A DNA stretch of 64,000 nucleotides, from the IMG/VR virus record IMGVR_UViG_3300028629_000007; one strand, 5' to 3'. Shown here piece by piece: positions 7,975-63,898 of the stretch. The notes under the pieces are model-generated. The model saw only the letters and a program-made list of their open reading frames with translations, had not been told where the DNA came from and did not search any database. Source of the stretch: a virus. Within the stretch, counting starts at the first letter, position 1. Each line of letters opens with the position of its first letter. The translations under genes and the position numbers were made by a program.

Positions 7975-8716
7975 TCCACCCCTTGGGCATGAATTGAGGC
8001 TTCATATTGTCAAGAAAATGCTTTCGCCAGCGCACAATGAATTCGCGAAGATCCTTTTGATGTGATACGATAACAGAAGCTGGAGAAACACTTGGAGTTT
8101 CTTTGGCTATTTCTTGCCTAAATGATGATATTGAAGTTTTGTCAATATCAACAACGCCAAAATGGTCGCCAATTTCTCTTAATAGAACATCTCGACGTTG
8201 CGGCGGAATATCGTCCCACTTGCTTTCCAGCGTCATGATGATAGCGTTCAGCTTTTCTGCCTTGACTACTTCGGGTAGCTTCTGGTTGTTCTTGGTGACT
8301 ATACCAGCCTCTTTTGCGAGCTTGGCGTTGAACAGATCAGCTTCTCTTTCATATTCTTCATGATGTTCTATACAAACAGGAAGAATGTCAAAATGATTAT
8401 GCGACTTCAGGACATCTGGGAAATGCTTTCGGTATTGGTAAGGAACGATATGATGCTTGGTCAGGTTCTTATCAGTTCCACATATGACACATTTATTACT
8501 CATGTTGTTTTTATAAACATCGGACAGGTGAAGATTGCCTATTCCCTTTGGTTCAAATAATAGTTGTATTGTCTTTTCGTCAACTTGTTTCGCCAATCCC
8601 TTCTTTAGATACCAGCGTATCTTCTTTCCATCGCAAAAACACATTCTATCACCACTAGGATGGAGTATAGAGTAGTTTTCATATATGTCAGTATCATTAC
8701 CGTGAAGATAAGTCAT
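7940..8716 (-). CDS. HNH-like protein resembling the EXD2 C-terminal domain
   Basis: YEN..ILHPSG..CFCD.KK..WYL.KG; CVICG..LTKHHIVPYQYRKHFP..KSHNHFDILPVC..HH. Confidence 0.75.
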   Translation of the reverse strand: MTYLHGNDTDIYENYSILHPSGDRMCFCDGKKIRWYLKKGLAKQVDEKTIQLLFEPKGIGNLHLSDVYKNNMSNKCVICGTDKNLTKHHIVPYQYRKHFPDVLKSHNHFDILPVCIEHHEEYEREADLFNAKLAKEAGIVTKNNQKLPEVVKAEKLNAIIMTLESKWDDIPPQRRDVLLREIGDHFGVVDIDKTSISSFRQEIAKETPSVSPASVIVSHQKDLREFIVRWRKHFLDNMKPQFMPKGWIDDHERFFYGN

Positions 8717-8723
8717 TAGTAGT

Positions 8724-8751
8724 ATTCTAACGAATCATATAGGGAAGTCAA
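8724..8751 (-). promoter_or_regulatory. Early promoter TTGACT-N16-TAGAAT
   Basis: Consensus match upstream of 8716. Confidence 0.7.
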
Positions 8752-9545
8752 ATGTTTTTACTTTTTAGGTATTTGTCAGAGTGACTTCCAACAAGAACCC
8801 AATTTCCAGACCTACCAGATTTTAGTGACATTTCACTTCTACATAAATGGTATTTTCTCGCCAGTTCACTTACACATCCAGATTCCTGTTCACCTGTCGC
8901 AATATTTCTAATCGTAGCTAACTTTGCGTTTTTAATAGACAATCCCTTACACAACTCTTTATCTCTCGGTATTGATGGCATTGTAACATCAATTCCGTCC
9001 TTTGTTGTCAACCGAACCATTCTCCAATCTTTCGACTTTCCTCTCGCACTCATATGCTTGTAGTTAAAATAATATTGCTTAGCCAATACCTTCATACATC
9101 CACTTACAATTTCATTAGTTTTAATATTTCTTATGGTGGTTATAAGCGCATTAGGGTGTGATATTCCTGCCTGTTTTCCTTTTCGGCTTATACTCCATTT
9201 TCTTTTGGTTTCCTCATTATGTTTTCCATGGGAACCACCTTCCATTAAATTAAACCCACACCTTTTGTCTCGACACTTATATTTTTTGATATAGTATCTT
9301 TCCATTATATCCAGTCTCTTTTTGCTATATGCCTTACATATTACTGCGAAATCAAAAGAATCAATTCCATACTTTTTTATTGCTCTGTTTAGGTGCGTTC
9401 GATTGCCTCCTAAAGAACATACGTACTCTCGTCTATAATACTGGTATGGATCTTGTGTAGTTTGTCCAAAATACTTCCTATTGTCTTTTTTCAGAGTTAG
9501 ACAATAGATATAACCATATACAGGTTTTATAATGTTTTCATTCAT
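8748..9545 (-). CDS. Free-standing GIY-YIG homing endonuclease
   Basis: GYIYCL..KYFGQT; E..YIKKY; N...GG; duplicated C-terminal DNA-binding module. Confidence 0.9.
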   Translation of the reverse strand: MNENIIKPVYGYIYCLTLKKDNRKYFGQTTQDPYQYYRREYVCSLGGNRTHLNRAIKKYGIDSFDFAVICKAYSKKRLDIMERYYIKKYKCRDKRCGFNLMEGGSHGKHNEETKRKWSISRKGKQAGISHPNALITTIRNIKTNEIVSGCMKVLAKQYYFNYKHMSARGKSKDWRMVRLTTKDGIDVTMPSIPRDKELCKGLSIKNAKLATIRNIATGEQESGCVSELARKYHLCRSEMSLKSGRSGNWVLVGSHSDKYLKSKNI

Positions 9546-15602: not shown

Positions 15603-15705
15603 AGGGGACTCTCCTATAATGTATTTATATCAGATATAAGTATATTTTAGTATATTTTATGAATAAATCAATACCCTACTTCCAGCCCACTCCCAAGTGT
15701 ATCAC

Positions 15706-15921
15706 TCACTCCCCATTCCACTCATCCATTCTACATCTCCCCTGTTGCTTATAAGCCCCTCTCAGATCCTTTCCATGGACTCTAATAGACCACATATTCT
15801 CGGGATCATAACCAGCCATAGTTGTCCCGAAAGTCAATGTATAGTGTATCAATAATCCCATGTCAAGCTTATAGTAGCATCCACCAACAGGATCGTATAA
15901 CTTACTTACCTTCAAGCCCAT
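15706..15921 (-). CDS. Small basic family C protein, paralogue of 20947-21174
   Basis: RVHGKDLRGAYKQQGR..WNGE. Confidence 0.8.
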   Translation of the reverse strand: MGLKVSKLYDPVGGCYYKLDMGLLIHYTLTFGTTMAGYDPENMWSIRVHGKDLRGAYKQQGRCRMDEWNGE

Positions 15922-15924
15922 GGT

Positions 15925-16181
15925 TCACCACCACAGGTGCGGTGCCCACTCGCCAAACAGCTTCAGTGCCTTCTGCGCCTGGGCATGTTTCTTTTTGTCG
16001 TAACCATACCAGTCGTCGCTTGCCATAAACTCGAAGCCCACAAGCATCTCTTCCAGTATCTCCTTCCACTTCTTCTCGGTCAAGTCTCCAGGGAAGCCGT
16101 TGTGAAGCTCAATGAACCTACGGAGTCGCGGAGAAGTTCATTCTCAGCTTCGATGGATTTGATGTAGAGAGCGTCGGTCAC
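15925..16181 (-). pseudogene. Chimeric pseudogene: family A leader fused out of frame to the C-terminal half of a 21354-21755 paralogue
   Basis: GTG-TDALYIKSIEAENELLR then PRLRRFIELHNGFP..HLWW* in another frame; junction at about 16128. Confidence 0.8.
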
Positions 16182-20483: not shown

Positions 20484-20565
20484 GTGTGTTTCCTTGGTTT
20501 ACTCTCATACTATACCCACCACTTCCCCAACTTCAAGCCTTATTCCCAGCCCACTTCCAAGTGTA

Positions 20566-20784
20566 TCACACACCATCCCACTTCTCCATTGCCGTTCTCC
20601 CATAGTTCTTACACGCTCGCTTTAGATTCTTCATACGCAAGCTAAAAAGATTACCTTCTGTTGGGGGCAAAGATGAAATATATATTTTATATCCGCTCAA
20701 CAAACCAATATCCAATAAAAAATTATAGCCATGTCGATCAGGATTTTTACTTATCTTGTATCTCATAAGCGTCTCATTCACCAC
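20566..20784 (-). CDS. Small basic family C protein
   Basis: RYKISK..KNLKRACKNYGRTAMEKWDGV. Confidence 0.75.
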   Translation of the reverse strand: MVNETLMRYKISKNPDRHGYNFLLDIGLLSGYKIYISSLPPTEGNLFSLRMKNLKRACKNYGRTAMEKWDGV

Positions 20785-20962
20785 TCCACTTCTTCATCGC
20801 ATCTCTTCCAGTCATCTTATAGTTTTTGTAAAGCATATTTCTTTTTCTATAAACCGTCATCTCAAAGAAAGGCGGCATATGTATAAAGTATCTTCTCCCA
20901 AGGAAAACAAATACTTCATCAGAAGGAAACACGCCTTTTCGGACCTTCATTCGCCACTCCAC
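20774..20962 (-). CDS. Small basic family C protein
   Basis: KRNMLYKNYK..GRDAMKKWSGE. Confidence 0.75.
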   Translation of the reverse strand: MEWRMKVRKGVFPSDEVFVFLGRRYFIHMPPFFEMTVYRKRNMLYKNYKMTGRDAMKKWSGE

Positions 20963-21174
20963 CCATCCATTGTGTTTCTCCCCTGTTGCTTATAAGCCCC
21001 TCTCAGGGTCTTTCCATGAACTCGAACATAATACAAGTTATCGGGCGACCTTCCAATCATAGTAACTGCAAAAGTCAACTTATAGCTACACAATAAGCCC
21101 ATGTCAAGCTCATAGAAGCAACCCGCTACACTATCAAGATTCTTGGTTATCTTCAAGCCCACTCTTCCCTCCAC
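20947..21174 (-). CDS. Small basic family C protein
   Basis: RGAYKQQGRNTMDGWSGE. Confidence 0.75.
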   Translation of the reverse strand: MEGRVGLKITKNLDSVAGCFYELDMGLLCSYKLTFAVTMIGRSPDNLYYVRVHGKTLRGAYKQQGRNTMDGWSGE

Positions 21175-21350
21175 CGAAGCATAGCGTCACTTCCCCGTTT
21201 CTTGTAATAACGGAGCATATACGATCTATTCCAAAAACCACCGGAAGTGTCGGAAGTGTTGAAGAAAAACAAACCCCGTTCAATAAAGTAAGCGTTTATT
21301 GATCCGCGATTCTTGCTTCCATGTAATATTTTACGATACTTCAAGCCCAT
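21153..21350 (-). CDS. Small basic family C protein
   Basis: MGLKYRK..RYYKKRGSDAMLRWREE. Confidence 0.75.
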   Translation of the reverse strand: MGLKYRKILHGSKNRGSINAYFIERGLFFFNTSDTSGGFWNRSYMLRYYKKRGSDAMLRWREEWA

Positions 21351-21353
21351 GGC

Positions 21354-21755
21354 TCACCACCACAGGTGTCTTGCCCACTTCCCAAACAACTCAAGCGCCT
21401 TATCAGCCTTCGCATGTTTCTTTTTGTCGCTACATCCATAGTAGTCATCGCTCGCCATGAATTCGAAGCCCTCAAGCATCTCCTTCAGAGTAGCGTCCCA
21501 CTTCTTCTCGGTCATTCCAGAATGCCCAGGAAACCCGTTGTTCAACTCAATGAACCTACGGAGTCGTGGAACAATCCACTCGGCAAACCTGAAATCAAGG
21601 TTCCAAGTCTCCATGTCACACCAGCCCTGCTTCTCATACTGCTTGGTGAATCGCTTAGCGCGAGCCAGCAGCTTCTTGGTTGGCTTGGGTCCGACACTCT
21701 CGTTGATATACTTGAGTTGCGGCTCAATCCACTTATAGGATTTGTTTTTAGTCAT
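21354..21755 (-). CDS. Conserved phage hypothetical protein ending LWW
   Basis: ETWNLD..IVPRLRRF..GFP..W...L.EM..GF..LFGKW..LWW. Confidence 0.85.
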   Translation of the reverse strand: MTKNKSYKWIEPQLKYINESVGPKPTKKLLARAKRFTKQYEKQGWCDMETWNLDFRFAEWIVPRLRRFIELNNGFPGHSGMTEKKWDATLKEMLEGFEFMASDDYYGCSDKKKHAKADKALELFGKWARHLWW

Positions 21756-21765
21756 ATATTTCCTT

Positions 21766-21891
21766 TTACTCGTCCTTCTTATCTATCTTTTCTCTAAGCA
21801 TTCTAACAACCATAATCCACAGCATTATAGAGGCGGGAACCAATCCACCAAGAAAAACAGTTATGATCACAGTGCCTAAGAGAATGTCCAT
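21766..21891 (-). CDS. 41-aa membrane peptide
   Basis: Manual translation MDILLGTVIITVFLGGLVPASIMLWIMVVR; fills the gap. Confidence 0.55.
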   Translation of the reverse strand: MDILLGTVIITVFLGGLVPASIMLWIMVVRMLREKIDKKDE

Positions 21892-30678: not shown

Positions 30679-32130
30679 TTATGCGTCTGTTCCTGTTATT
30701 CTACTTATATCTGTCTTTATATTATACACTGCTTTATACACCAATACCCAACTTGCTTCGAATTTTTCAAAGGCATCAAATAACCCTGCTTCTATTTCTC
30801 TACGTCTTGCATTTTTCATGGCAATTATATTATCAGGAGATAAATCTTCTATTATTTCCATCGCTTCTTTTTTCCAGCGACTTGCTATTTTGACAACATG
30901 CTTAAGCATTATTTCCGGAACGGGTCTTTCTTTACCTACAAGCGAATCCAAGCAACTCGAAAGAGCCTTGAAGTAAAGAGCCTTGGTTTCCATATGTGAA
31001 CGCATAGCGGCTTCAAATGCAACATCTGCGTCATCTGCATATCTTACGGTGCTTTTCCAGTTATCATCTACATCTCCCATTATTCTTGATACCATATCAT
31101 CAACTATTATAGTAACTTCATCTGCGAGTGACGCTGGTGATAAATCAAATTTCTTGACCGATTCATTCAACCCAGATTCAAGCTTCTTATAAAAAGAAAT
31201 AACATCATGCTTAATACGATTTTTACGATTTACCATCTCGTCGGCTATACCTTCAATGTCACGATCAATTTCTTCTGGCGTCAGTCCTTTCCAATATGTT
31301 TTATTTCCTGGCTTTCCAACTGGCTGTGACTTCATGGCTATAAGATACTTGGTCTTGAATGCTTCCAAGTAATCCGTCATCCACTCTCTCCAAGTTTCGT
31401 CGGGTATCTTCTCCACTTTGTCAAGTATATCTTTTACATTGCTGAAAGGTGCCTTTATCTTTCCTTCCTTTACACGAATGAAGAACTCGTTGTAATACGA
31501 CTTGGCACCAACAGGCGTCTTGGTTCTCTCCAGCGTATCCGGATCCTTGGGGAAGGTAGCGTTGAGTATCTTTGACAGATACCGCATTGCCTGTCCACGG
31601 TCGATTCCAATGAGCTTTCCACCTACCCTGAGTGTCGTTTCTGCATGAGTGTCCATATTGGATACGAGGTAATCAAACACATGAAGGCGCTGGATTGTCC
31701 GTATATCTTCTGGCGTTAGCTTGTCGGTGTAGTTATCACCAAACTTGTTTTCCTCTGCGTTATCAAGAAACGGCATAACGATACCCAATGTTCCTTGCTC
31801 CACACCATCTACATCATCGAACGGAAATGGCAACTTGGTTACGGGAATATGCTCACCGGGTTCAAGAACGGCTGAAGCTGCTTTCGAGGCGAAGTATTCT
31901 GCGTTAGGCTGGGTGAACTCTTTGTCTCTTGACTTGGCAGCCCGGGGCTTTCCGGTTATCTTGGATACCATGCCTATCTTACGCTTTCCTGACTTCCAGA
32001 GATACTTCTTGCCATTCTTCTTCGACTTGAAGAAATGCTTATCATACGAGCCAGCGAGAGGCGCAGGACCAACATACTCGAAGCCAGCAGATACTATATC
32101 ATCAAGAGGTTCAGTCCACCATTCGTTCAT
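30679..32130 (-). CDS. HipA/PI3-PI4-kinase-like protein with helical C-terminal domain
   Basis: YLWK; FDYLVSNMDTH; LIGIDRG. Confidence 0.7.
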   Translation of the reverse strand: MNEWWTEPLDDIVSAGFEYVGPAPLAGSYDKHFFKSKKNGKKYLWKSGKRKIGMVSKITGKPRAAKSRDKEFTQPNAEYFASKAASAVLEPGEHIPVTKLPFPFDDVDGVEQGTLGIVMPFLDNAEENKFGDNYTDKLTPEDIRTIQRLHVFDYLVSNMDTHAETTLRVGGKLIGIDRGQAMRYLSKILNATFPKDPDTLERTKTPVGAKSYYNEFFIRVKEGKIKAPFSNVKDILDKVEKIPDETWREWMTDYLEAFKTKYLIAMKSQPVGKPGNKTYWKGLTPEEIDRDIEGIADEMVNRKNRIKHDVISFYKKLESGLNESVKKFDLSPASLADEVTIIVDDMVSRIMGDVDDNWKSTVRYADDADVAFEAAMRSHMETKALYFKALSSCLDSLVGKERPVPEIMLKHVVKIASRWKKEAMEIIEDLSPDNIIAMKNARRREIEAGLFDAFEKFEASWVLVYKAVYNIKTDISRITGTDA

Positions 32131-40943: not shown

Positions 40944-41138
40944 TTAGTCAAATATGTGATGACATCTCATATAATATTCACCCGTTTCTTTCCAGTAGAC
41001 ATAGGCTTGCCTTTTTCTATTATTGTACGATTTACCAGCTAATACCTCTTTGTATTGCCTCGACCCGATATGGTTATTGAACATATAGTCTCTTCCATAT
41101 ACTCCCCATTTGCCTTTTTTCTTATACAGAGTTGTCAT
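40944..41138 (-). CDS. Small basic protein, tandem paralogue 1
   Basis: GR.YMF.NH..NRKRQ..W..YMR..HIFD*. Confidence 0.8.
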   Translation of the reverse strand: MTTLYKKKGKWGVYGRDYMFNNHIGSRQYKEVLAGKSYNNRKRQAYVYWKETGEYYMRCHHIFD

Positions 41139-41166
41139 TATTCACATTCTACCATAATTGTCGGTG

Positions 41167-41364
41167 TTAGTCAAATATATGCTCATATCTCATGTAGTGA
41201 CTTCCCAAGTGCTTCCAATCCCAATGCCTTTGTCTTTTTCTGTTGTGGCTGCATATCGTAGGAAACGCTCTATGAAATAGACGGGAGCATCTGTGATTGG
41301 TGAACATATATTGTCTTCCGGATAATATACCAAATATATCTTTGTTTCCACAGAGTTTTGACAT
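41167..41364 (-). CDS. Small basic protein, tandem paralogue 2
   Basis: Same motifs as 40944-41138. Confidence 0.8.
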   Translation of the reverse strand: MSKLCGNKDIFGILSGRQYMFTNHRCSRLFHRAFPTICSHNRKRQRHWDWKHLGSHYMRYEHIFD

Positions 41365-45466: not shown

Positions 45467-46252
45467 TCAATACATTCTTCTGTTACTCGGATCCAGAACA
45501 TCAACTACAGTTGTCATAACTTCTGTCAAGTCATTTTGAAGACGATCATGGAGAACCTGATCGACTTTTCCATCTATCATATACAAGCGTCGATTTACCT
45601 CAATCATATATGTAGATCCAAGTTCCCCGTTATAGTCGCATGGATATATAGACCCCGAATAGGGAATGTTGGTGAAAACCTTGTAGCCCTTTTGTTCAAA
45701 TAGATACTTGAAAGTATCTACAATCTCCATTTTGGAGTGTTGTAAGTCCCAACCTATACAGATGTCGGGTCTTACCGGATCTTGATGAACATCTCTCTTC
45801 AATGGAACATCGGTAAATGAGTGACAGTCGAAGATAACAAATTTGCCAGGATACTCGTTAACTGCTTCTAAAAGCTTCTCATGGTGGGGAACATAGTAGT
45901 CCCAATAGATACTTTCTTTTATTCCGTTCTTATCTTCCCTGAGTAGCGAACCATCATCACAATGGGTATAGAAGTAACCCATGCCCTTTGCGCTCATCGG
46001 TTCCTCAGAGTCCTTGGCGAATCGTTCAACATCGCAAAACACACGGGAGAAGTCGGCTTTTACGATAGTTGCATATGGATAGTAGAAGAGCGTATCTGTA
46101 GCATGGTCGGTTAGCAAGTCAATTTCACTCTGCGGATCTTTCACATATCCTGTCATGTCTGGTATTTTATAAGACGAATGTGGAATGTGTAATATAGGAC
46201 GAACTTTCGTAGGATATCTTTTACCATCATAATAAACATAATCATGACTCAT
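45467..46252 (-). CDS. N-formylglutamate amidohydrolase family protein
   Basis: HIPHSS; SRVFCDVER; DCHSF; RPDICIG; NIPYSG; MIEVNRRLY. Confidence 0.9.
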   Translation of the reverse strand: MSHDYVYYDGKRYPTKVRPILHIPHSSYKIPDMTGYVKDPQSEIDLLTDHATDTLFYYPYATIVKADFSRVFCDVERFAKDSEEPMSAKGMGYFYTHCDDGSLLREDKNGIKESIYWDYYVPHHEKLLEAVNEYPGKFVIFDCHSFTDVPLKRDVHQDPVRPDICIGWDLQHSKMEIVDTFKYLFEQKGYKVFTNIPYSGSIYPCDYNGELGSTYMIEVNRRLYMIDGKVDQVLHDRLQNDLTEVMTTVVDVLDPSNRRMY

Positions 46253-54298: not shown

Positions 54299-55358
54299 AT
54301 TTGCGTCTTATACCCTAAAGAAACATCTTTCGCCTTTAGATATAATACACATAATGGATTTCTAATAAACATATTTCGTGCATAAAAGTATCTTGGAGGC
54401 GATGCCGTATCACCACTAAACGGAGAGCGCCAATACTTCTGCAATCTAAGCATCTATTATGACCCAATATACTTATTCTACACTATTGTTATGTAAAGTC
54501 AATCGGAGAAGTTCATATCAGTTTGCTTTAGAAATAGTTTCATAGTAAATTTTCCTCTGCACTTTATTTCGTCTTGAAGTTTCTTTTTTCTTGCCTTGAG
54601 GCTACTGAAGCAGTATTTTCTTCCAATGTTAATTGGGGACCAAATATACTGATGCATAATAGAATAATCAAGAAAAGTTTCTCTTGCTAATGTAACGCTT
54701 CCACCACGAGAGTCCAAATGTGATTTTGGATGGGATGTTTGGGAGTCAATGGTAATACTACTACCATAAACAAAAGTTACTAAAAAAATATATGATTGAG
54801 CGTTGTAGCTTGTCTTATGATATTTCATAATATTCCTCGTATTCCACCCATTCTTTGACTTCCCCAATTCTTCCAACCAACTATAAGCTCCTTCTTTCTG
54901 TCCTTGAGAGTTCTCATATTGCATGGAGGTTCTTCGTAGCAACACCACCAACCAAATCCAAATGTTCTTCCAGTAAACACCATACAACATAACCTCGGTT
55001 CTGCTACGAAATGTCTTTTTCTGGGTATGTAAAATGGATATACCCAACGGTTTCTCTTATGATACTTCATGGTATTATATTCATCCTCATCTGCTGATTA
55101 GTTTTCTTATATTTCACGAGTATCAAATCCTACCATAAGGTTGTGTCCATTGGTCTTCCACGCTATCTTCAGGTCTTTTTTATTACTACGCCATATTTCA
55201 ATAAAGCTCCATTCATGCCACCCATTGAAACAATTTCTATCATCCGTGTCAAAGAAACCCGAACGACGAAATACAATTACATTGTAATATTCACTAGAAT
55301 ATGATATTTGTAATTTCTGCTTCTTCATCTTCATAAGAGGCTATTCCCATATCGCATC

Positions 55359-55761
55359 GTGAATACACCCACCCCCTAAAGGGAGTGGGCTTCTAGGTGG
55401 AGTTTCAACCACCAAAGATTATATACCTAATCTTGTCTGTTCTGTTTATGTTAAGTTTCTTTCTACTTTAAGTAGTTGTATATTATAGAGTTATAATTTC
55501 ACACTCATCTTACTTAACGAAATATACAATATATTTGTTTTAACTGTATATAGTTTTACGAGTAGGTCAGTCACTTCCTAACCAGTTATTGGACTTATTG
55601 ACTTTGCCATTAACCTGTAGTATTGTTTCCTACTCAACCTGTCTACATTGTTTTTCAAAGAACTAAGTTAATTGTAACTTGTTATTTTAGAAAGTCAACC
55701 ATCAAGTTACCCACCATTCATCCCATCGGCTAAAGCCAATGGGTTTTCTGGTGGAACGATG
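55359..55761 (-). mobile_element. Non-autonomous IS200/IS605 derivative (MITE-like, no tnpA or tnpB)
   Basis: LE TTTAT|CATCGTTCCACCAGAAAACCCATTGGCTTTAGCCGATGGG; RE GAAGCCCACTCCCTTTAGGGGGTGGGTGTATTCAC; excision restores the host ORF. Confidence 0.9.
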
Positions 55762-55915
55762 ATAAACTTTCCCCACTCTCGGCGTATATAACGCTTCTCT
55801 TCAGTAATCTTTTTTTGACTATCTCTGAATCTAAAGCTAATAATAACTGATATTTTACCAAGATCAAATCCACTTCCGTTGACTCGTATCATGCCAAACC
55901 GTAACTTTTCTACCT

Positions 55916-56098
55916 TCATTGTAATATCTTTTCCAATATTTTGACAGCATCATCAAACGCAATATCATCATGCTCCCTATGTGAATGTATCAATCTACGG
56001 ATTATCTCAAGATACTGAGAGTTCCTGGCACGAAGTCTTTTGACTAGGCGCGATTGCTCTATCTGGTTCTCCAGACTACAGGGGTAGCGAGTCTTCAT
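55916..56098 (-). CDS. Small coiled-coil hypothetical protein
   Basis: ATGA overlap. Confidence 0.65.
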   Translation of the reverse strand: MKTRYPCSLENQIEQSRLVKRLRARNSQYLEIIRRLIHSHREHDDIAFDDAVKILEKILQ

Positions 56099-57230
56099 AA
56101 GGTTTATTATGAGTCATACTCGCGGTTTGTCAAGTGTTGTGTATGCTGTCCCCATAACTTCCAGATATTTCTTAATAAAACTTTATAGTATTTTGGAGTA
56201 ACTCTTATATCTTTGCTCATCTGAATCCCCAATCTTGCAGACCCAAACGCATTACAATCATTTTCCCTAAACCCAACACTTCTAAACACATATGTTCTGT
56301 GACTAAACCACTTCTCCTGAAATACTTTCATACATCACTGCCTGTGTAGAGTAAATACATCAATTCCCTTCCAACACGTTTATAACTATCTAGAACATCT
56401 CTTTTTTTATTCATAGACAGTAGAAAGAAGTCTTCTTTACCAATAACTAGTCTAAGTGGAATTCTGTCGGTAATAGACATACATGACTTGTATTTCCCCG
56501 ATACATGCCACCACTCAAACCAATAGTCATCGTCAATTGCCTTTTCCCCAGAATACGGAACAGTGTAGTTTTTACGATACTTCAGAGCCATTAGTCATCA
56601 TCTCCCATCATACCTCGACCACATTCTTTCCAGATACGACGAAGCTCTATTTTTGGGTTGATGCCTGTTGCTGATAGAAACCCACCATTTCTTGTTTTTA
56701 CATTACATATGTAGATTACTCGTATAACTTTTCTCCCATTCGGAAAAATATACCGAAACTCCAGGGATCTGAAACTACCAAACTTAGATACTTTCATTGT
56801 CTTCCCCATTCCACAAATTATATTCTCTGTATAAATTCTTATAATTTTGTTTTAAGCTTCTTTTTGGGTTGTGATGGCTAAAAAACAAAGGAAAAGATAC
56901 GCCTGTATTTATGTTATTTACATAACAACAATGCAATGTCTCATGGAGCAGTCTAGCAAATACCCTTCTAAAATAAACTCTATAAGTCCTACCACTATTG
57001 TCAAATGGACCTTTACGGACGCCTGTAATATACTTGCTATACTTCATCATATTCCCATGGTATATTCTTCCAGTATCTACGAAGACGCTTTTTGCAACTC
57101 ATGCTGGTCATTCCATTACAGAAATATTTTGGTTTTTGTGTTGATACACTATCTTTTGGACCAACCATCTTGTTCCTATACTCTATTCTCCATACTCCAT
57201 GAAAAAATCTCGTGTATATTTTATTAGTCT

Positions 57231-57527
57231 TCATGCTTTAGCCTTTGGGTCGTGCTTAGGATGAAGTATCGTAACAATCATCTTCGTAGTCTCTGAATAC
57301 ACGCAGTTGAACCAGATGTCTTTATAGGATACATGAATGTGGTGCTTACCATAACCCAATGGCTTCTGGTAGTCTCTTGCCCAGCTATTACCTTGACATA
57401 TCACGCTCATGGCTTTCAAGTCTTCGTTTGATAGCTCAATACCATATCTCTCAAGTGAACGTGAAGCGGCATGAGGTTGCTTGACAACCTCGCTGTAGCC
57501 ATATATCTCTATGCCTTCTTCACTCAT
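57231..57527 (-). CDS. Hypothetical protein within the family C array (different family)
   Basis: HAASRSLERYG..VYSETTKMIVTILHP. Confidence 0.75.
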   Translation of the reverse strand: MSEEGIEIYGYSEVVKQPHAASRSLERYGIELSNEDLKAMSVICQGNSWARDYQKPLGYGKHHIHVSYKDIWFNCVYSETTKMIVTILHPKHDPKAKA

Positions 57528-60500
57528 AATACTTCCTATTCCAGTTTACGCCTTTCCAACGAGAACGCAAGATGCGTTTTACCTTGAATGGTGTGAGAGC
57601 AAAAAATCCTCTTACAATGTATCTTGCCTTACATATTGTGACGAATGTTTCTCTGGCGTCAATATAATACATTTGCTTATGTCTACCACAATCTTCATGA
57701 ACACGAAACCTATGTATCTTTTCATACTTCATCGTAAACCCACTCTATGTCTTTCCACTTCTGACGCAATATCCATTTTATTTTTTGTGTTTTTGTATGT
57801 GGACGAAATTTTCTTTTCCTATGTAATCCTTGAATCGTCAGTGCGTGGTCATCGAAGAATGTATCACGAAAGACGATAAAGATACCGACTGCTTCCATGT
57901 CATTCATGATTATTTTATTAGTCTTCATGGCTCTTCTCCATTCCAGTTACATGACCCATCATTGAAATCTAGTCTGTACATATCTTTCCAGTAGCTATAA
58001 GTATCTCTCTTGCGATTAAATGGTTTGTATTTGAAGTGATAAACAGCACTAAAAGATTCTATTTGCTCGTATTCCCATTTGATGGACATGCTTCTACCGT
58101 AAGTGAATACATTACGCATCTCAAAAGTAACCATCATGTTTTCTGAATCGTTGGTCTTCTTGAACTTCATTCTTCTCCCGTTCCCCATCGTCTATATCTT
58201 ATGAACGTCTTTTTCCACATATTCTTCAACAGACGCTTTCTTTGCTGGACGGGTGGAGTACTGAGGTTGAAGGTTCCAAAAGCTGCCCAGCCAATGTGCC
58301 AGTTACGACTGCCAGTAAAAACCTTACGAAAATACATTTCATGCACCTTGAATTTATATTTTTTCATTCTTCACCACCATTCCACCACATGTATGACAAA
58401 TTATAAGCAGATGAAGGATGTGTGAAGAATTTCTTCCATTTATTCTTCATGTGTCTTTTTCTGTTTGCATCATATCTCATCATAAACCGCTGAAACGGGA
58501 TAGACGGACCCCATTCAAACCATATATTATTTGGGAACATCATACCGAAGTTTCTACACTTACTACGACTGGCTGTAATAGGCATGAAGATCTTACGGTA
58601 GAATATACGATTCCTATCTAATGCTTTACATATCTTCATTCGTCACACCCCCAGCAGTTCAGACTCTTCCATTCATTCACTAAGTCTCTTTTTATGTTTA
58701 AATGTGAATAAAACTTACGATTCCCAAAAGTATAATATAACTGGGAACTGATACTTATCTGATTAGCACCCGAGACATCATAATACGATGAATAATAACC
58801 TATGAAAGCAAATCGACTAATATAGAATCCCTTTCTTGTCTTCCATGGTTTCTTCATATATTCTTCTCGCTTTCGTCCCATTTGAACATAATATGCCTAC
58901 CATACACCTTCCACTTAATACGACACATCTTCTGTGGGCAATGGACTCTTTCATAATCATACTTACCATTTTTATATATAGTCAAAATCTCAAATGTTTG
59001 AATGCGCTTAATGCTCTTCAGTCCAAGAAACCCCACAATAACAACATAGTATATGTCTCGACTACCATCAAGGAAACTCCTATGCTTCTTGTATAGCTTA
59101 TAACCCATAATGTTATGATACTTCTATTGTGTTATAAGTCAAATTGTTAGTCGTACATACCTTCTATCATCCTCCTGCCTTCTGTCTTATATGCTCTAAT
59201 GGCACATCGTCGCATCTTTATGGCGTGATGTGACCATTTATGCATTGACCATGTATTATAGGGAACCAAATAGAAAGAACTACGCGAATGGTGGTCTAAT
59301 GACTTACAATAGTACACAATGATATGTGGAGCATCTTCCACATTGCCCTTACGAACACGTATCTTACTCATCTAGGTCGTTCCATGTTTTTCTCCAGTAT
59401 CCCTTATAGCAGCACATGTAATTTTTCCTTACTTGAGACATACCAAACATAGATTCACCATTACCATAGGACCAAGAAAGATTGAACATCCCCAAATTCC
59501 TAAAATGATACACCAGACCATTAGCCAAGTATCTCTTATTACATTCACATCGACGCATAATCTTCTCCGAATACTTCATACGATAGACATCTCCAGCCAC
59601 ATTTATAGACTTTCAAGGCTCTTTTACGAAACCTCAAGTAACCATACTCAAACTCAGCATATGATACACGATTACCTGTTTCCCCAACAAACTCTTTATT
59701 ATCTTTATTCCACTTGACAGACCATCCATGGCTGATGATATGTGGAATCGCCTTTGAGGACCATAGCAACTCCTTGGCTTTATATACTTTCAGCTTACTC
59801 ATGATAGTCCCATTTCATGAGCTTGTAGCATAGAATACAATTCTTTTTTTCTTTTCTTATTCGGTTGAAGTCCCAATCAAGAAAGCCAACCTCTCGTCCA
59901 AGAATGTATCTCGGGCGGTCACATTCCAAGTTATTATACTTGTCACCCCATCTCCATGGACTGACCTTATGGATCTTCATTCATCACCCCTTACCCAATC
60001 ATTATACTCTCTTCTTTCACTATAGCAACTCTTCCAGTCATCTATAATTCTTCTCTTCGTGTTCATGATTCGCTTTCCCAGCATGTTACGAAAGCGTATA
60101 GGAACAAATTGTGTACCGCATTTGGTTCGATGGCAACCACGGAACATTCCCCGATACTCTACATAGTATCCCCAGCCCTGAGAAGGTTTGTTATACTTCA
60201 TCGACACCACCCCAAGAACTTACCCTGTTAGCAAACATACTCTTCCAGTCATCTCTTAGGTTTCTTTTCATATTTATTGGAATGTCTCTCATATAGAGGC
60301 TTTCTCTACAAACTTGAACTTCCCACACTTCTTTGAATTGAAAGACGCTTCGACTACAGAACATGTCAACGCCATGCTCTTTGTTTTTCTTATACTTCAT
60401 CTTCACCCCTCCACTTGCACAGATGGTCCCTATATATCAACTTCCATTCTCTTTTCAAGCGTCTCTTGGGATTGACAAATCCCCTGGCTCGTCTAAACAG

Positions 60501-62577
60501 AGAAGGTATGGTTATAACATACAGACTGCTATCGCAACCATATATAACGGGCTTAGAACGGAATACCCTTCTTCCCGTGTAACATACCTTGATTCTATCA
60601 TACCTAATAGGTTTCTTATTATACTTCACTCTTCACCCCTTCCCCAATCCCATTCAGGGCAGTTAGAAGGAACTCCAGTAGCGCGATACATGTTCTTCCA
60701 ATCGTCCCATATATGTCGCTTGCGGTTACAGCATATACCACTACCACTCCAGCCACACCATTGCGAGTCGTTGAACACGAAGCAGTCACGGTATTTCACT
60801 ATGTAGAGGTCGTGGGGGTCTTTACGGAGCTTCATAAGCAACCCCATTCATCTATATTACTTCTAAAGGTATTCTTCCAGTCATTCACACATGCTCTTTT
60901 TATGTTACATGTTCGTATACTACGATCATGACAAAGGCTTTCATCAAAGACACCTATCCAGATGCTCTTATCATCTATATAAGATGATGCGTCCTTAATA
61001 CCATCAAACACATCACGGAATATTATCCGAGCATCGTGTGATTTACGATACTTCATATCTCAACCCCATTCCAACCAGGATCATCAAGACCACTGCTTCT
61101 ATATTCACCTTTCCAGTTATTATATAGCTGGCGTTTCATATTCCTACCACGAACAAAAGAAGTACCTATTTCTGCATTCCCATAAGAAAACGCACATCTC
61201 ATCAGCATCACGGTTCGCATGCCAAACAGAGTGTCAGTTTTTATCTTACGATACTTCATATCTCAACCCCATTCCAAGAGGCATATATCTTATATTGTCG
61301 CTTCCAAGCCTCGCGAACTACTCTCTTAGTGTTACCATTCCTGTCATAGAAGTTTCTACCATCATAGAATATCCCGATCCAACTGGTCATGGGATCGTTC
61401 TTGGCAAATACTCTACGAGCCTCAATACGATCAGCATGCATCCATGTATCAGCTACTTTATTATACTTCATTCGGCACTCCAATGATACGATACCCCCAA
61501 TAAAGCTTATTATAGCAACGAAAGCATATCTTCCATTGTTCCAGCATCATTCGCTTTCGGTTTGTGAATTCAATGGGACTTATGCTCGGTTCAACATAGT
61601 ATACAGAAAGCTCATCGTTCCTTCCCAGAAGAAAGACACTCCTATGGGCTAAACAATAGCGACTCTTACGTAGCTTCATTCTTCCTCTCCATCCCAGTCA
61701 ACTTGATAGTCGTCAAACGGAAGATTCATATACTCATACTTCCAGTTGTCCAAAAGATACCGTTTGACATTCTTTCCCTTTGTATGAGCCTCGTGAACTA
61801 TCGCAATACCGTCATTGCGGGTAAAGATGCTACGATGCACCAAATGAGTGCGTATACCCCAGCCCGTCCTCTGTTTTTGTTTATTATACTTCATGTGGAA
61901 TCCCAATAACCATACCTTCACCACCCCTACGGAAGTGTAGATACTGGTTCTTCCACTGGTTAGCCAAGTCTCGTTTTACATTATCCATGCTGAACGGTGA
62001 TATGATGTCAGGTAGGACAACTATAGCTACAGTATTCGTCTCATTCATGATAAAGGCACTACGAAACCGTACACATCCCCCACTCTTATGAAGCTTCATG
62101 GCACCCGCCCCATCCGTCATACCCAAGTCGCTGAAATTCCTGTTTCCAGTTATCGACCACAGCCCGTTTTCTGTTATCATTATGAAAGTGATCGACAAGA
62201 TACCCAGCCCAACATCGACATCGCATATTGGAAGAGCGAGTAGTCCCATCAAATATCTCCCGATACACGATTATATCACACCAGCGGTCACGGGATTTCT
62301 TATACTTCATCGGCGCTACTCCGAATCCACGGGCGATACTCCTTCTCAACATCTCTACGCATATAATCAAACCTATATTGTTGCTTCCACGCATCAACCA
62401 TGTTTCTTTTAGGGTTTGGTGGTCTAACATTCATAGAGAAGTCAATCAATCGACACCCCCACATACCTAAAATAACATGCCCGTTACAAAAGCAGTCACG
62501 CAGATGATAGCAGTTGATGGTAAAGGCATGGTTGCTCTTAGGGGCTTTACGAAGCTTCATAGGTATCCATGCGGTCT

Positions 62578-62605
62578 ATACTATCAGGTTCCCTATGAGA
62601 GTCAA
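62578..62605 (-). promoter_or_regulatory. Early promoter heading the family C array (TTGACT-N16-TAGTAT)
   Basis: Consensus match. Confidence 0.7.
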
Positions 62606-62689
62606 CCGCTAAAGCCAAGAGTTGCTTATAAGGGACTAGAGAGGGACTTATGGGTTACTGAGGGGCTACCGCTGGGCGAGCAGCAAAGA

Positions 62690-63075
62690 AACTTATAGGA
62701 ACTATGAGGAACTATGAGGAACTATGAGGAACTTGGGAGAGCAACTTATGGGAACTTGGGAGAGCAACTTATGGGAACTTCAAGCAACTTGCAGCTACTT
62801 CAAAGAGGCTATATATGCTTATTTATCAACTTATAGCAACTTCAAGCAACTTGACCCTACTCAGTGATACTTATATACTTAGATTTTTGCAACGGGACAC
62901 AACCCAAAAAGTTTTCCACAGGGTCTATATTGCCGCCAAAAGTCGCCGTCCAGTTTCTCAACAGGTTCTTACAAGTTACTCATAAGCCGCCTATAAGACC
63001 CTATAAAGAAACTTTGCCGCCTTTCCGCTCCTTGTCCAGAAACTCAACAGGTTCTTACGAGTTACTCATAAGTCC
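62690..63075. repeat. Non-coding oriented repeat cluster at the strand switch
   Basis: GAACTATGAG x3, 23-nt GGAACTTGGGAGAGCAACTTATG x2, many GCAACTT, 30-nt repeat 62957-62986 / 63043-63072. Confidence 0.85.
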
Positions 63076-63238
63076 CATGTCAAAGTGGCTCAAAAGTATC
63101 ATTTTTCGGGAAGCCATAAATCGTTTTTTGGTAGTACTTTATAAAAATAACACAACAGATATTATCGGGCATTTTTTGTCTGATAAAAATACACGCATAA
63201 ATATCTATAAGTGATATAATATACTTAGGAGGTAGGAT

Positions 63239-63898
63239 ATGTGGTGGGAAAAGCACGAGGGGTTACATCTGAATAACAAATACGGAATACATCCAAGCGA
63301 TTATAAATGTTATGAAGATTATAGAAGAGCCTCTAAAAATGCTTCTGATAGAGAAAGCATGAAACGGAGATATGCGGCTAATCCAGAGAAGTTTAGAAAG
63401 AAGCAAACTGCTTATAATGAAAGAAACAAAGACGCTATAAAGCAACGACGAATAGATGCTTGGGGTGACTTGGATAATATCGGAAGTGGTAGTAAGTGTG
63501 AAAGATATACTTATAAGCTTCTCCGAGAATACTTCCCGGGAGCAAAAATAGAGAGACAATACTATATTAGATTAGACGCTAATGAGAAACTTGTAAGTGG
63601 AAGAAAGCGTATCTTCGTTGATTTTTATATCCCATCATTACGACTTATGGTAGAATACAATGGTAAGCAACATTATGGCGAAAGCAAGAAATACTTTGAT
63701 AGGTTCAGTGAGTCTATAGTAGGTTACTTAGATACCATGCCCACCCGTGACAAGTTTCTTGAGGATTGGTGTAAGTCAAATGATATATCTCTTATAGTAG
63801 TCGATGGGAGAGTGGCAAGTCGCCCACATCAGATCAAAGATTACTTATATCCGTTACTGGAAAGTCGCTTGCAAGCCGCTCAGAAGATGCTAAAATAA
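63239..63898 (+). CDS. Vsr/DUF559-like PD-(D/E)XK homing endonuclease
   Basis: IERQY..VDFYIPSLRLMVEYNGKQHY..RDKF..WC..I.LI; AGGAGG RBS; CATAAATA at 63196-63203. Confidence 0.85.
   Translation: MWWEKHEGLHLNNKYGIHPSDYKCYEDYRRASKNASDRESMKRRYAANPEKFRKKQTAYNERNKDAIKQRRIDAWGDLDNIGSGSKCERYTYKLLREYFPGAKIERQYYIRLDANEKLVSGRKRIFVDFYIPSLRLMVEYNGKQHYGESKKYFDRFSESIVGYLDTMPTRDKFLEDWCKSNDISLIVVDGRVASRPHQIKDYLYPLLESRLQAAQKMLK

Follow-up and report, generated by a model that had tools for sequence, protein, structure and literature searches.

A tandem gene family for predicted small basic proteins, joined by start/stop overlaps, in a large uncultured sludge phage

The minus strand at 54499-62560 of the window (the whole 64,000-nucleotide stretch analyzed, from a large uncultured phage of sewage sludge (activated sludge) with a genome of at least 145 kb) contains 34 small ORFs of 60-109 aa each, chained head-to-tail over 8 kb. 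Twenty-one of them are strong and four are weak members of one family, about five are divergent relatives, and four are unrelated; by these comparisons the 34 genes include about 25-30 paralogs, each predicted to encode a basic protein of ~70 aa. A prior reading of the sequence alone had proposed an array of about 30 basic mini-proteins, and most of the 34 ORFs indeed share one profile. We cautiously favor the view that this is an old, clade-specific tandem family, coupled through and recombining at its junctions, whose basic products would bind polyanions and act early on host or competing targets.

Family composition and array layout

The family consensus is MKYxK..YRxVF..NxKRxLxxxWKxxYR..WxGxE, ~70 aa and basic. 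The shared motifs pointed out by the sequence-only reading, MK(Y/L)xK, RxxF, KRxxxxxWK, and WxG(E/D), are upheld in alignments of 26, 63, and 93 sequences, in which M1, K2, K5, R, F, N, K, R, W, K, and W reach a conservation of at least 85-100%, while nearly all remaining columns are near-random, with entropies of 3.5-4.1 bits. Some of these "invariant" residues may reflect a constraint at the DNA level, because dual coding and the need for a Shine-Dalgarno (SD) sequence account for part of the conservation at the N- and C-termini. The make-up of the proteins, small, cationic (median pI 9.7), and aromatic-rich, is as described in that reading.

That reading had also suggested an HMM search as a check for a common family, and a single, independently trained profile recovers 22 array ORFs. 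Built exclusively from 36 non-window proteins of other metagenomes, this foreign-only profile picks out 22 window ORFs with an E below 0.01, 17 of them below 1e-5; they are all on the minus strand within 54828-62575, with none elsewhere in the window. The family has no match below E 0.01 in PADLOC, Pfam, PHROGs, or NCBIfam, and is uncatalogued, being absent from the last three. Its relatives are found only in a few uncultured phage contigs; the three phages sampled here are the window phage, L006, and L008. The genes of the array, all on the minus strand, are as follows.

59977..62560, minus strand: g01-g12, twelve strong members (foreign-only profile E 3e-7 to 2e-16); starts at 62560, 62310, 62099, 61894, 61679, and 61471 (g01-g06) and at 61259, 61056, 60835, 60629 (GTG), 60400, and 60201 (g07-g12); overlaps of 4, 11, or 14 nt at every junction
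59147..59980, minus strand: g13-g16, divergent relatives in which the helix motif is RK..YK and not KR..WK; overlaps of 4, 8, 35, and 8 nt
58854..59108, minus strand: g17, first cistron of the second unit, SD-less
57520..58857, minus strand: g18-g23, six strong members (iterated profile E 5e-5 to 2e-18); starts at 58857, 58639, 58367, 58170, 57928, and 57732; orthologs in both L006 and L008
57231..57527, minus strand: g24, a highly conserved 98-aa protein unrelated to the family
56591..57234, minus strand: g25-g27, three members (E 2e-6 to 3e-17); starts at 57234, 57047, and 56797
56107..56591, minus strand: g28 and g29, weak members (E 0.008 and 0.0025)
55916..56098, minus strand: g30, an unrelated 60-aa protein, first cistron of the third unit, SD-less
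55707..55919, minus strand: g31, a small gene in which an insertion has shifted the 3' end
54825..55334, minus strand: g32 and g33, weak members (E 0.004 and 0.005)
54499..54828, minus strand: g34, the final ORF, with an ATGA overlap with g33

The divergent genes g13-g16 gave no match with foreign-trained profiles; L006 carries an ortholog of each at the corresponding position (39-61% identity). g17 scores only E 0.59 against the family profile and has an ortholog in L008 at 55% identity, g28 and g29 are 57-77% identical to their L008 orthologs, and g30 is 76% identical to its L008 counterpart. The embedded g24 is 89-91% identical to its counterparts in L006 and L008 (pN 0.06), with no match in Pfam or PHROG. 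The family likeness of g34 is confined to an MKYHK N-terminus, and it is not matched by the family profile.

Junctions and promoters

Start/stop overlaps occur at 29 of the 33 array junctions, and within units take the form ATGA or ATGAAGTATAA. The recurrence of junction DNA reported previously is borne out by counts: ATGAAGTATAA is present in 5 exact copies and in 14 with at most one mismatch (2.35 expected), and ATGAAGCTNCNTAA in 4 copies (0.03 expected). An exact junction repeat had been noted as well; it is real, but is 32 nt long rather than 31.

61043-61074, minus strand: copy 1 of the exact 32-nt repeat, at the g07/g08 junction, encoding W-N-G-V-E-I-stop plus M-K-Y-R
61246-61277, minus strand: copy 2, at the g06/g07 junction

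The two copies lie 203 nt apart, i.e., one unit, and constitute the sole long exact repeat found.

Within units, the WxGxE codons of the preceding gene are also the Shine-Dalgarno sequence of the next. The median anti-SD duplex energy of the 31 internal starts is -6.0 kcal/mol, versus -2.9 for positions picked at random in the array; at the three starts next to promoters it is -3.1, -0.6 (g17), and +0.7 (g30). Three predicted sigma70-type promoters, conserved between phages, are situated 5-8 nt ahead of these SD-less first-gene ATGs, indicating that the array genes form three units, each opened by its own promoter. The single early promoter of the sequence-only reading is therefore replaced by three (62605-62578, 59142-59115, and 56133-56106). 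The first cistrons would be translated from leaderless mRNA and the remaining ones by translational coupling through the start/stop overlaps.

62578..62605, minus strand: head promoter from a consensus scan (TTGACT, 16 nt, TG-extended TAGTAT)
62689..62871: phased repeats of 10 bp and 23 bp, lying upstream of the head promoter (TRF; repeat families D1 and D2)
59115..59142, minus strand: internal promoter 2 (TTGACT, 16 nt, TATCAT), with the ATG 6 nt on
56106..56133, minus strand: internal promoter 3 (TTGACA, 16 nt, CATAAT), with the ATG 7 nt on; conserved in L008

The -35 element of the head promoter and its flanks are invariant in L006 and L008. In these relatives the ATG follows 7 nt past the -10; in the window a mini-ORF of 7 codons (62570-62547) comes between. 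The repeats upstream (TRF: period 10, 3.7 copies, 100% match) have equivalents in both relatives. Internal promoter 2, nearly base-for-base conserved in L006 and L008, occupies the only gap (38 nt) in its part of the array. A promoter followed in this way by an ATG was found 9 times on the minus strand and 0 times on the plus strand, versus 0.2 in shuffles. Five terminator-like matches were found in the 10 kb scanned, none of them at an array gene junction.

The late motif TATAAATA is missing from the array; elsewhere, 8 of 8 copies are on the coding strand and at least five directly precede gene starts. The array thus probably lies in a region transcribed by the host RNA polymerase, "early" here referring to promoter type only. 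Small, cationic proteins such as these might be packaged in the virion and injected, or be membrane-active peptides; the lack of the late-promoter motif in the array, the sigma70-type promoters, and the fact that no hydrophobic segments were seen in the array protein sequences make this very improbable.

Age of the paralogs and selection

Family copy number is at least 17 in L006, where the contig end cuts the array, and about 42 in L008. Orthologs between phages are collinear and 39-70% identical, versus at most 39% for the closest paralog within the window phage. For all 20 of 20 ortholog pairs, 13 of them family members, pN (0.06-0.39) is below pS (0.40-0.95). In the family tree the phage label requires 32 changes (shuffled mean, 31.5), and cross-phage ortholog pairs have SH-aLRT values of 85-99; copies group by orthology, not by phage. 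Collinearity, pN values far below pS, and grouping by orthology together indicate that the paralogs arose before the three sampled phages diverged and have been retained singly under purifying selection.

These results do not support the earlier suggestion of a hypervariable, diversified library in the sense of current diversification: the array is 100% identical between independent assemblies, and its positional orthologs are under purifying selection. The diversified interiors do exist among paralogs, as near-random middle columns, but they are conserved between orthologs. Programmed hypermutation or frequent gene conversion within populations would fit the near-random columns between fixed positions, and the exact repeat of 32 nt at two junctions points to some conversion. 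Nevertheless, identity across assemblies, the presence of all sampled array words in 14 sludge runs, the retention of the variable regions between orthologs, the lack of recent paralogs, and the absence of a reverse transcriptase among window ORFs of at least 150 aa leave active diversification barely credible. As a target of a diversity-generating retroelement the array was rejected, since no RT domain was found among those ORFs, the 32-nt junction is the only long exact repeat, and the assemblies agree.

Recombination at the junctions

Comparison of strains, which had been proposed for array content, revealed single-cassette differences and copy-number change, and no hypervariability. The features involved are the following.

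60191..60400, minus strand: g11, a cassette missing from variant strains
55359..55761: non-coding insertion of 403 nt; an X15 contig joining 55358 to 55762 is the natural empty site
20566..21350, minus strand: satellite mini-array, made up of four small genes that overlap (MGLKxxK..YKxxGRxxMxxWxGE)
15706..15921, minus strand: satellite gene within a mosaic copy (15674-16132) of 20538-21570

In runs X15 and X17, contigs connect 60190 directly to 60390, an exact deletion between junction repeats (199 nt skipped, 12 nt shared) that leaves the g10 stop and g12 start intact. Identity switches from 85% to 99.7% at this joint, and L006 has no ortholog of g11. Among the runs compared, the two labeled RNA are probably DNA. 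The empty-site join restores a 61-aa g31 ORF whose TGA overlaps the g32 ATG. The mosaic at 15674-16132 consists of three collinear blocks of 73-79% identity, from which the intervening genes were removed exactly at junction repeats; the gene at 15706-15921 is accordingly the junction chimera that it had been taken for. Together these events indicate that homologous recombination acts on the conserved DNA of the junctions, so that whole cassettes are removed, added, and swapped with their neighbors undamaged. Stop codon, start codon, and ribosome-binding site are encoded together in such a junction, and the natural variants of the array illustrate how it could couple translation and still let a single gene be gained or lost cleanly.

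The indels and mosaics at junctions, the tolerated insertion in g31, and the lack of a known function for the family are also what would be expected if the array were mostly selfish or near-neutral, with recombination between junction repeats driving cassette gain and loss and each copy having little fitness value. We consider this quite improbable: every ortholog pair has a pN far below its pS, the frames are all intact, positional orthologs persist beyond synonymous-site saturation, and the promoters and coupling signals are conserved.

Predicted fold and possible roles

AlphaFold2 models of two members, of moderate confidence (pLDDT 68 and 66), share an N-terminal hairpin and a C-terminal helix, suggesting a β-hairpin packed on an amphipathic basic helix. 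A third strand present in one model was not reproduced in the other, in which the variable middle was left unmodeled. The best structure comparisons of these models (pLDDT 66-68) are at noise level, with Z 3.6 (1bb8) and weak Foldseek matches at E 6.5 (2wcc) and 1.4; the fold and family searches gave no significant known match, and none that backs nucleic-acid binding. The common fold looked for is a consistent core at modest confidence, for which no known match was found. Small DNA-binding domains of the integrase-N/AP2/chromo-like kind, with a three-stranded sheet and a helix, are represented among the weak hits by the N-terminal domains of the Tn916 and lambda integrases and by chromo-like domains. 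These resemble the first model in element order and size, but the third strand is missing from the second model and the scores are at noise level.

The dozen invariant residues, mostly Lys, Arg, and Trp, could make up a shared site for binding polyanions, with nucleic acid the most likely ligand, and the hypervariable middle may give each paralog its own specificity. Jointly, the proteins would target host or competing nucleic-acid-associated partners early in infection; a host-takeover or counter-defense role of this kind is the likeliest one suggested by the sequences. The same basic and aromatic set and helix could, alternatively, serve the phage's own nucleic-acid transactions, in an architectural, chaperone, or regulatory capacity, with paralogs specialized by phage site or time. 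Long-term one-to-one retention, as in housekeeping genes, and the many RNA- and DNA-handling genes nearby (TROVE, polynucleotide kinase, nucleotidyltransferase, methylases) are consistent with this possibility, which we nonetheless think unlikely: members are singly dispensable in nature (g11 is missing in variants and in L006), copy number differs more than 2-fold among relatives, and members have diverged 3-8 times as far in amino-acid sequence as the embedded g24, traits that are typical of accessory rather than core genes.

Another proposal, also unlikely, is that the array is a coding-embedded repertoire of cassettes for small nucleic-acid binders built on one fixed scaffold, with each paralog adapted to its own host target or defense and the dual-coded junction selected as a universal recombination handle. 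If so, co-infecting relatives could trade single expression-ready cassettes, in a gene-sized analog of integron or PeSL (promoter-early stem-loop) shuffling without a recombinase.

Large phages carry many small early genes without a known role, and 25-42 individually conserved copies offer a natural variant series for the discovery of binding partners. Should members turn out to block defense systems or the nucleic-acid machinery of the host, their conserved skeleton of 12 residues would represent a new class of binder; if not, this would be one more lineage-specific phage family.

Comparison with known gene arrays

Large DNA viruses carry tandem multigene families, e.g., the MGF families of ASFV. 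Here, too, adjacent paralogs fall under one profile and copy number varies by gain and loss; the head-to-tail runs of tens of diverged small-protein paralogs, their early/variable region, and copy-number differences among relatives are shared with the ASFV MGFs, to which the family has no sequence relationship. Lytic phages have early clusters for host takeover, such as the SPO1 gp37-gp60 module, the T5 pre-early genes, and the T4 early ORFs. These likewise comprise many small, singly dispensable, presumably host-directed genes with strong host-type promoters; however, their genes are unrelated to each other, whereas the array is one expanded family, and no homology was detected.

PeSL cassettes are found in the hyperplastic regions of T4-type phages, where small, non-essential early genes are separated by short conserved sequences that serve as recombination points for the insertion, deletion, and replacement of single genes among close relatives (PMC2839356; PMC4122927). 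Similarly, repeated junction elements of the array recombine to yield gene indels and replacements (the g11 deletion and the 15.7 kb chimera). In contrast to PeSLs, the handle is a dual-coded start/stop overlap carrying a Shine-Dalgarno sequence, stem-loops are absent, three promoters serve 34 genes, and paralogs of one family are shuffled instead of unrelated ORFans. An intergenic promoter-plus-terminator cassette of the PeSL type was ruled out by the 29 of 33 junctions that are coding overlaps and by the lack of terminator-like matches at junctions.

Satellite genes

Satellites of the array had been placed at 15.7, 20.6-21.4, and 47.7-49.1 kb. At the first two sites the likeness to the family is confined to 21 columns at the C-terminus (hhalign E 1.3e-4, probability 53%); the third is not significant (E 0.013 or worse). 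Better candidates, encoding 64-65 aa with an NRKRxxxxxWK helix motif, are located elsewhere in the window.

41170-41364, minus strand: satellite gene, E 1.4e-4
40947-41141, minus strand: satellite gene, E 0.008

A predicted sigma70-type promoter plus ATG (41174-41138) opens the gene at 40947-41141, and a second promoter-plus-ATG match (40951-40916) opens the next gene downstream.

A family of small basic proteins in a minus-strand array

Coding between 54.5 and 62.6 kb lies on the minus strand throughout. With starts chosen to give the recurrent M-K-x-x-K N-terminus, 34 chained ORFs of 60-109 aa (g01-g34) run from g01, which begins at 62560, to the end of g34 at 54499. The shared motifs described in the sequence-only reading are seen in an alignment of 26 array ORFs. 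Across a larger alignment of 93 family sequences, with members from three phages and other metagenomes, conservation of 85-100% is seen at M1, K2, K5, an Arg and the Phe three residues on, in N-x-K-R-x-(L/V/I)-x-x-x-W-K-x-x-(Y/F)-R, and in W-x-G-x-(E/D); another five positions keep a hydrophobic residue, all remaining columns have an entropy of 3.5-4.1 bits, and the middle segment is very variable in length. The median pI of the family is 9.7.

Searching 1.84 billion representatives exhaustively with a profile yielded only 51 proteins, 16 from the window and 35 foreign. At E<0.01, a profile built from the foreign sequences only recovered 22 ORFs of the window; every one is a minus-strand ORF between 54828 and 62575, and the rest of the window gave no match. 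After one profile iteration, 21 window ORFs were detected at E<1e-4 and g28, g29, g32, and g33 at E 0.002-0.008; g13-g16, which have the variant helix motif RK..YK, escape the iterated profile, and g17, g24, g30, and g34 are unrelated to the family or of doubtful membership. The genes at 47.7-49.1 kb, previously counted as satellites (family-like small genes outside the array), are not significant in the profile search and were rejected as members. The family had no match among Pfam, PHROGs, NCBIfam, PADLOC, and PDB sequence profiles, a word-indexed homology search returned the window's own proteins only, and megablast matched the array to none of 50,697 phage records.

Overlapping junctions and translation signals

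Neighboring ORFs overlap at 29 of the 33 junctions.

Junction types in the array
ATGA overlap: 14 junctions
11-nt ATGAAGTATAA overlap (one frame reads D-E-V-stop, the other M-K-Y-K/N): 7 junctions
14-nt overlap: 3 junctions
8-nt overlap: 3 junctions
Other overlaps (1 nt and 35 nt): 2 junctions
Gaps: 4 junctions

Two of the gaps (38 and 8 nt) contain a sigma70-type promoter and a third contains a 403-nt insertion. The junction motifs occur at a frequency far above chance. Pairing of the 18 nt upstream of 31 internal starts with the anti-Shine-Dalgarno sequence has a median energy of -6.0 kcal/mol, versus -2.9 at random array positions, and this Shine-Dalgarno signal consists of the G-rich codons of W-x-G-x-E. 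Overlap combined with a Shine-Dalgarno signal is the layout of the array, and the genes after the first cistrons are predicted to be translationally coupled.

Promoters and predicted leaderless starts

The array had been thought to start at one early promoter; we find a head promoter (62605-62578) and two internal sigma70-type promoters (59142-59115 and 56133-56106), all on the minus strand and conserved in relatives. All three are near-identical base for base in L006 and/or L008, two related phage contigs with the same kind of array, despite diverged flanking genes. At each of the three an ATG lies 5-8 nt past the -10 element, without a Shine-Dalgarno sequence (energies -3.1, -0.6, and +0.7). 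On its minus (coding) strand the window has nine sigma70-type promoters with an ATG 5-8 nt past the -10; the plus strand has none, and shuffles give 0.2.

62605, 59142, 56133, 51155, 46286, 41174, 40951, 28012, 8751, minus strand: promoter-plus-ATG sites

Eight of these nine run directly into real ORFs, including a 261-aa gene at 46252 and a 258-aa gene at 8716. Judged from these signals, the first cistrons are probably leaderless, and the pattern suggests that leaderless mRNAs may be a general habit of the phage and a clue to its host. In the window, a 10-nt insertion produces a 7-codon mini-ORF ahead of g01. This mini-ORF (MDTYEAS; 62547-62570, minus strand) starts where transcription is predicted to begin and overlaps the beginning of g01; it is absent from L006 and L008, in which a family gene directly follows the promoter.

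A second type of signal, TATAAATA, occurs eight times in the window, always on the coding strand and never in the array; at least five copies lie a short way upstream of a gene start, and the pattern fits a T4-like late promoter.

2521, 3776, 6930, 9635, 15622, 28943, 33313, 47638, minus strand: TATAAATA motifs

Repeats fill the 630-nt divergent intergenic region at 62606-63238. Phased 10-bp units occupy 62697-62733, a 39-nt sequence is present twice (62948-62986, 63034-63072), and there are also 23-nt units and a 17-nt inverted pair with 400 nt between its arms. The phased repeats are found again in L006 and L008, and the region could be a regulator-binding or replication-origin region. Beyond it, 63239-63898 is the sole plus-strand gene near the array; it is homing-endonuclease-like (PHROGs 9084 and 559), with a 69% identical ortholog in L008.

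Relatives, age, and selection

Both related contigs carry the array behind a homologous upstream region, with at least 17 members up to the contig end in L006 (from an 89-kb contig) and about 42 in L008 (30.5 kb), where two opposite-strand genes (58 and 193 aa; 8063-8823) break the 42-copy array. L006 has collinear orthologs of g09-g28, 39-70% identical. In L008 gene order is likewise kept over the distal half (g13-g30); the promoter-proximal half of the L008 array is enlarged and in a different order. The best paralog within the window never exceeds 39% identity. On a maximum-likelihood tree of 74 members, phage of origin requires 32 changes, about as many as in shuffles (mean 31.5), and many cross-phage ortholog pairs have SH-aLRT values of 85-99. 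Given the low paralog identity and a tree in which phage labels behave as if shuffled and ortholog pairs are supported, there has therefore been neither concerted evolution nor a recent burst: the family is old, and its copies have been retained individually.

Across the 20 ortholog pairs compared, of which 13 are from the family, pN ranges over 0.06-0.39 and pS over 0.40-0.95, which shows that the ORFs encode proteins and evolve under purifying selection. The 13 family pairs have pN 0.19-0.39 and pS 0.60-0.95, mostly saturated, and the unrelated, embedded g24 has pN 0.06. By this measure, the family ORFs evolve several-fold faster than g24, and each copy is retained in its own right.

57231-57527, minus strand: g24, 98 aa, outside the family, 89-91% identical in L006 and L008, far above the conservation of its neighbors

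g24 has no Pfam or PHROG match; used as a conserved anchor, it was absent from IMG/VR, and JGI metagenome contigs gave the L006 contig alone.

A DGR or active hypermutation was rejected, as window ORFs of 150 aa or more include no reverse transcriptase and the array is 100% identical across assemblies. The earlier proposal of a diversified effector library holds for the many specialized copies and fails for present diversification.

Junctions as recombination points

Contigs of variant strains in two sequencing runs from a 2021 sludge study (X15 and X17) join 60190 to 60390, with 12 bases common to both sides, so that exactly g11 is lost and the g10 stop and g12 start are intact. At this joint in one contig, identity to the window switches between 85% on one side and 99.7% on the other. 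g11 is missing from L006 too. Among the satellites, three blocks of 20538-21570 make up the mosaic at 15674-16132, which breaks at the satellite genes' repeated start and end motifs, and in the array an exact 32-nt junction is common to g06/g07 and g07/g08, one unit apart. Because the g11 loss, its counterpart in L006, the mosaic, and the 32-nt repeat all agree, we regard the junctions as recombination handles, mediating cassette loss and mosaicism.

Compared with 20538-21782, the 15674-16132 segment is a segmental duplication at 73-79% identity, with intermediate genes lost at junction repeats; the duplicated DNA spans a small satellite gene together with the C-terminal half of a 141-aa gene whose product ends ...HLWW.

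55359-55761: 403-nt non-coding insertion at the 3' end of g31

An X15 contig provides the natural empty site of this element, with 55358 joined to 55762; in the joined sequence g31 is again a 61-aa ORF, its TGA overlapping the ATG of g32.

Literature searches on tandem paralog arrays in phages turned up the PeSL papers alone as relevant. PeSL-mediated shuffling in T4-type phages (PMC2839356, PMC4122927) is the nearest published mechanism, but the handle in the array is an overlap of coding sequences, and a single family makes up the cargo. Arrays of this general kind are not new; the protein family and the junction design are.

Predicted protein structure and role

AlphaFold2, run on two different members with family alignments, produced models of moderate quality. 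The g06 model (pLDDT 68) has three strands (4-8, 13-23, 26-35) followed by a helix at 48-63; the g21 model (pLDDT 66), whose middle is of low confidence, has two strands (3-8, 13-18) and a helix at 53-69. The models suggest a common core of an N-terminal hairpin, formed by pairing of MKYxK and YRxVF, plus an amphipathic helix at the C-terminus. Judging by the motif spacing, the helix would present L, W, and Y on one face and K, R, K, and R on the adjacent one. Fold searches (pdb, viral, pdb_via_wide, afdb_clusters, and atlas) and an Atlas feature search returned nothing above noise; the weak look-alikes, integrase N-terminal and chromo-like domains, were at noise level. The invariant Lys, Arg, and Trp may form a common polyanion-binding site, probably for nucleic acid, and the proteins are likely to have an early, host-directed role.

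Phage genome and its sources

The window DNA is 100% identical in several assemblies, and all sampled words of it are present in 14 activated-sludge runs; no RNA data set is listed among the runs that contain its words. Two runs labeled RNA-Seq, flagged as probably DNA, yielded only short, 100%-identical contigs. A second contig of 85 kb from the same sample overlaps the window start, which puts the genome at about 145 kb or more. Scanning the window for Rfam families and tRNAs found nothing. The genes in the window include methylases, a helicase, a TROVE protein, a polynucleotide kinase, TnpB, and homing-endonuclease-like genes. Known phages contain almost no relatives of the large window proteins, with the exception of an ADP-ribosyltransferase-like segment. 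For the 483-aa protein encoded at 30679-32130 (minus strand), the sole phage-database relatives are ADP-ribosyltransferase domains fused to mycobacteriophage minor capsid proteins (26-29% identity).
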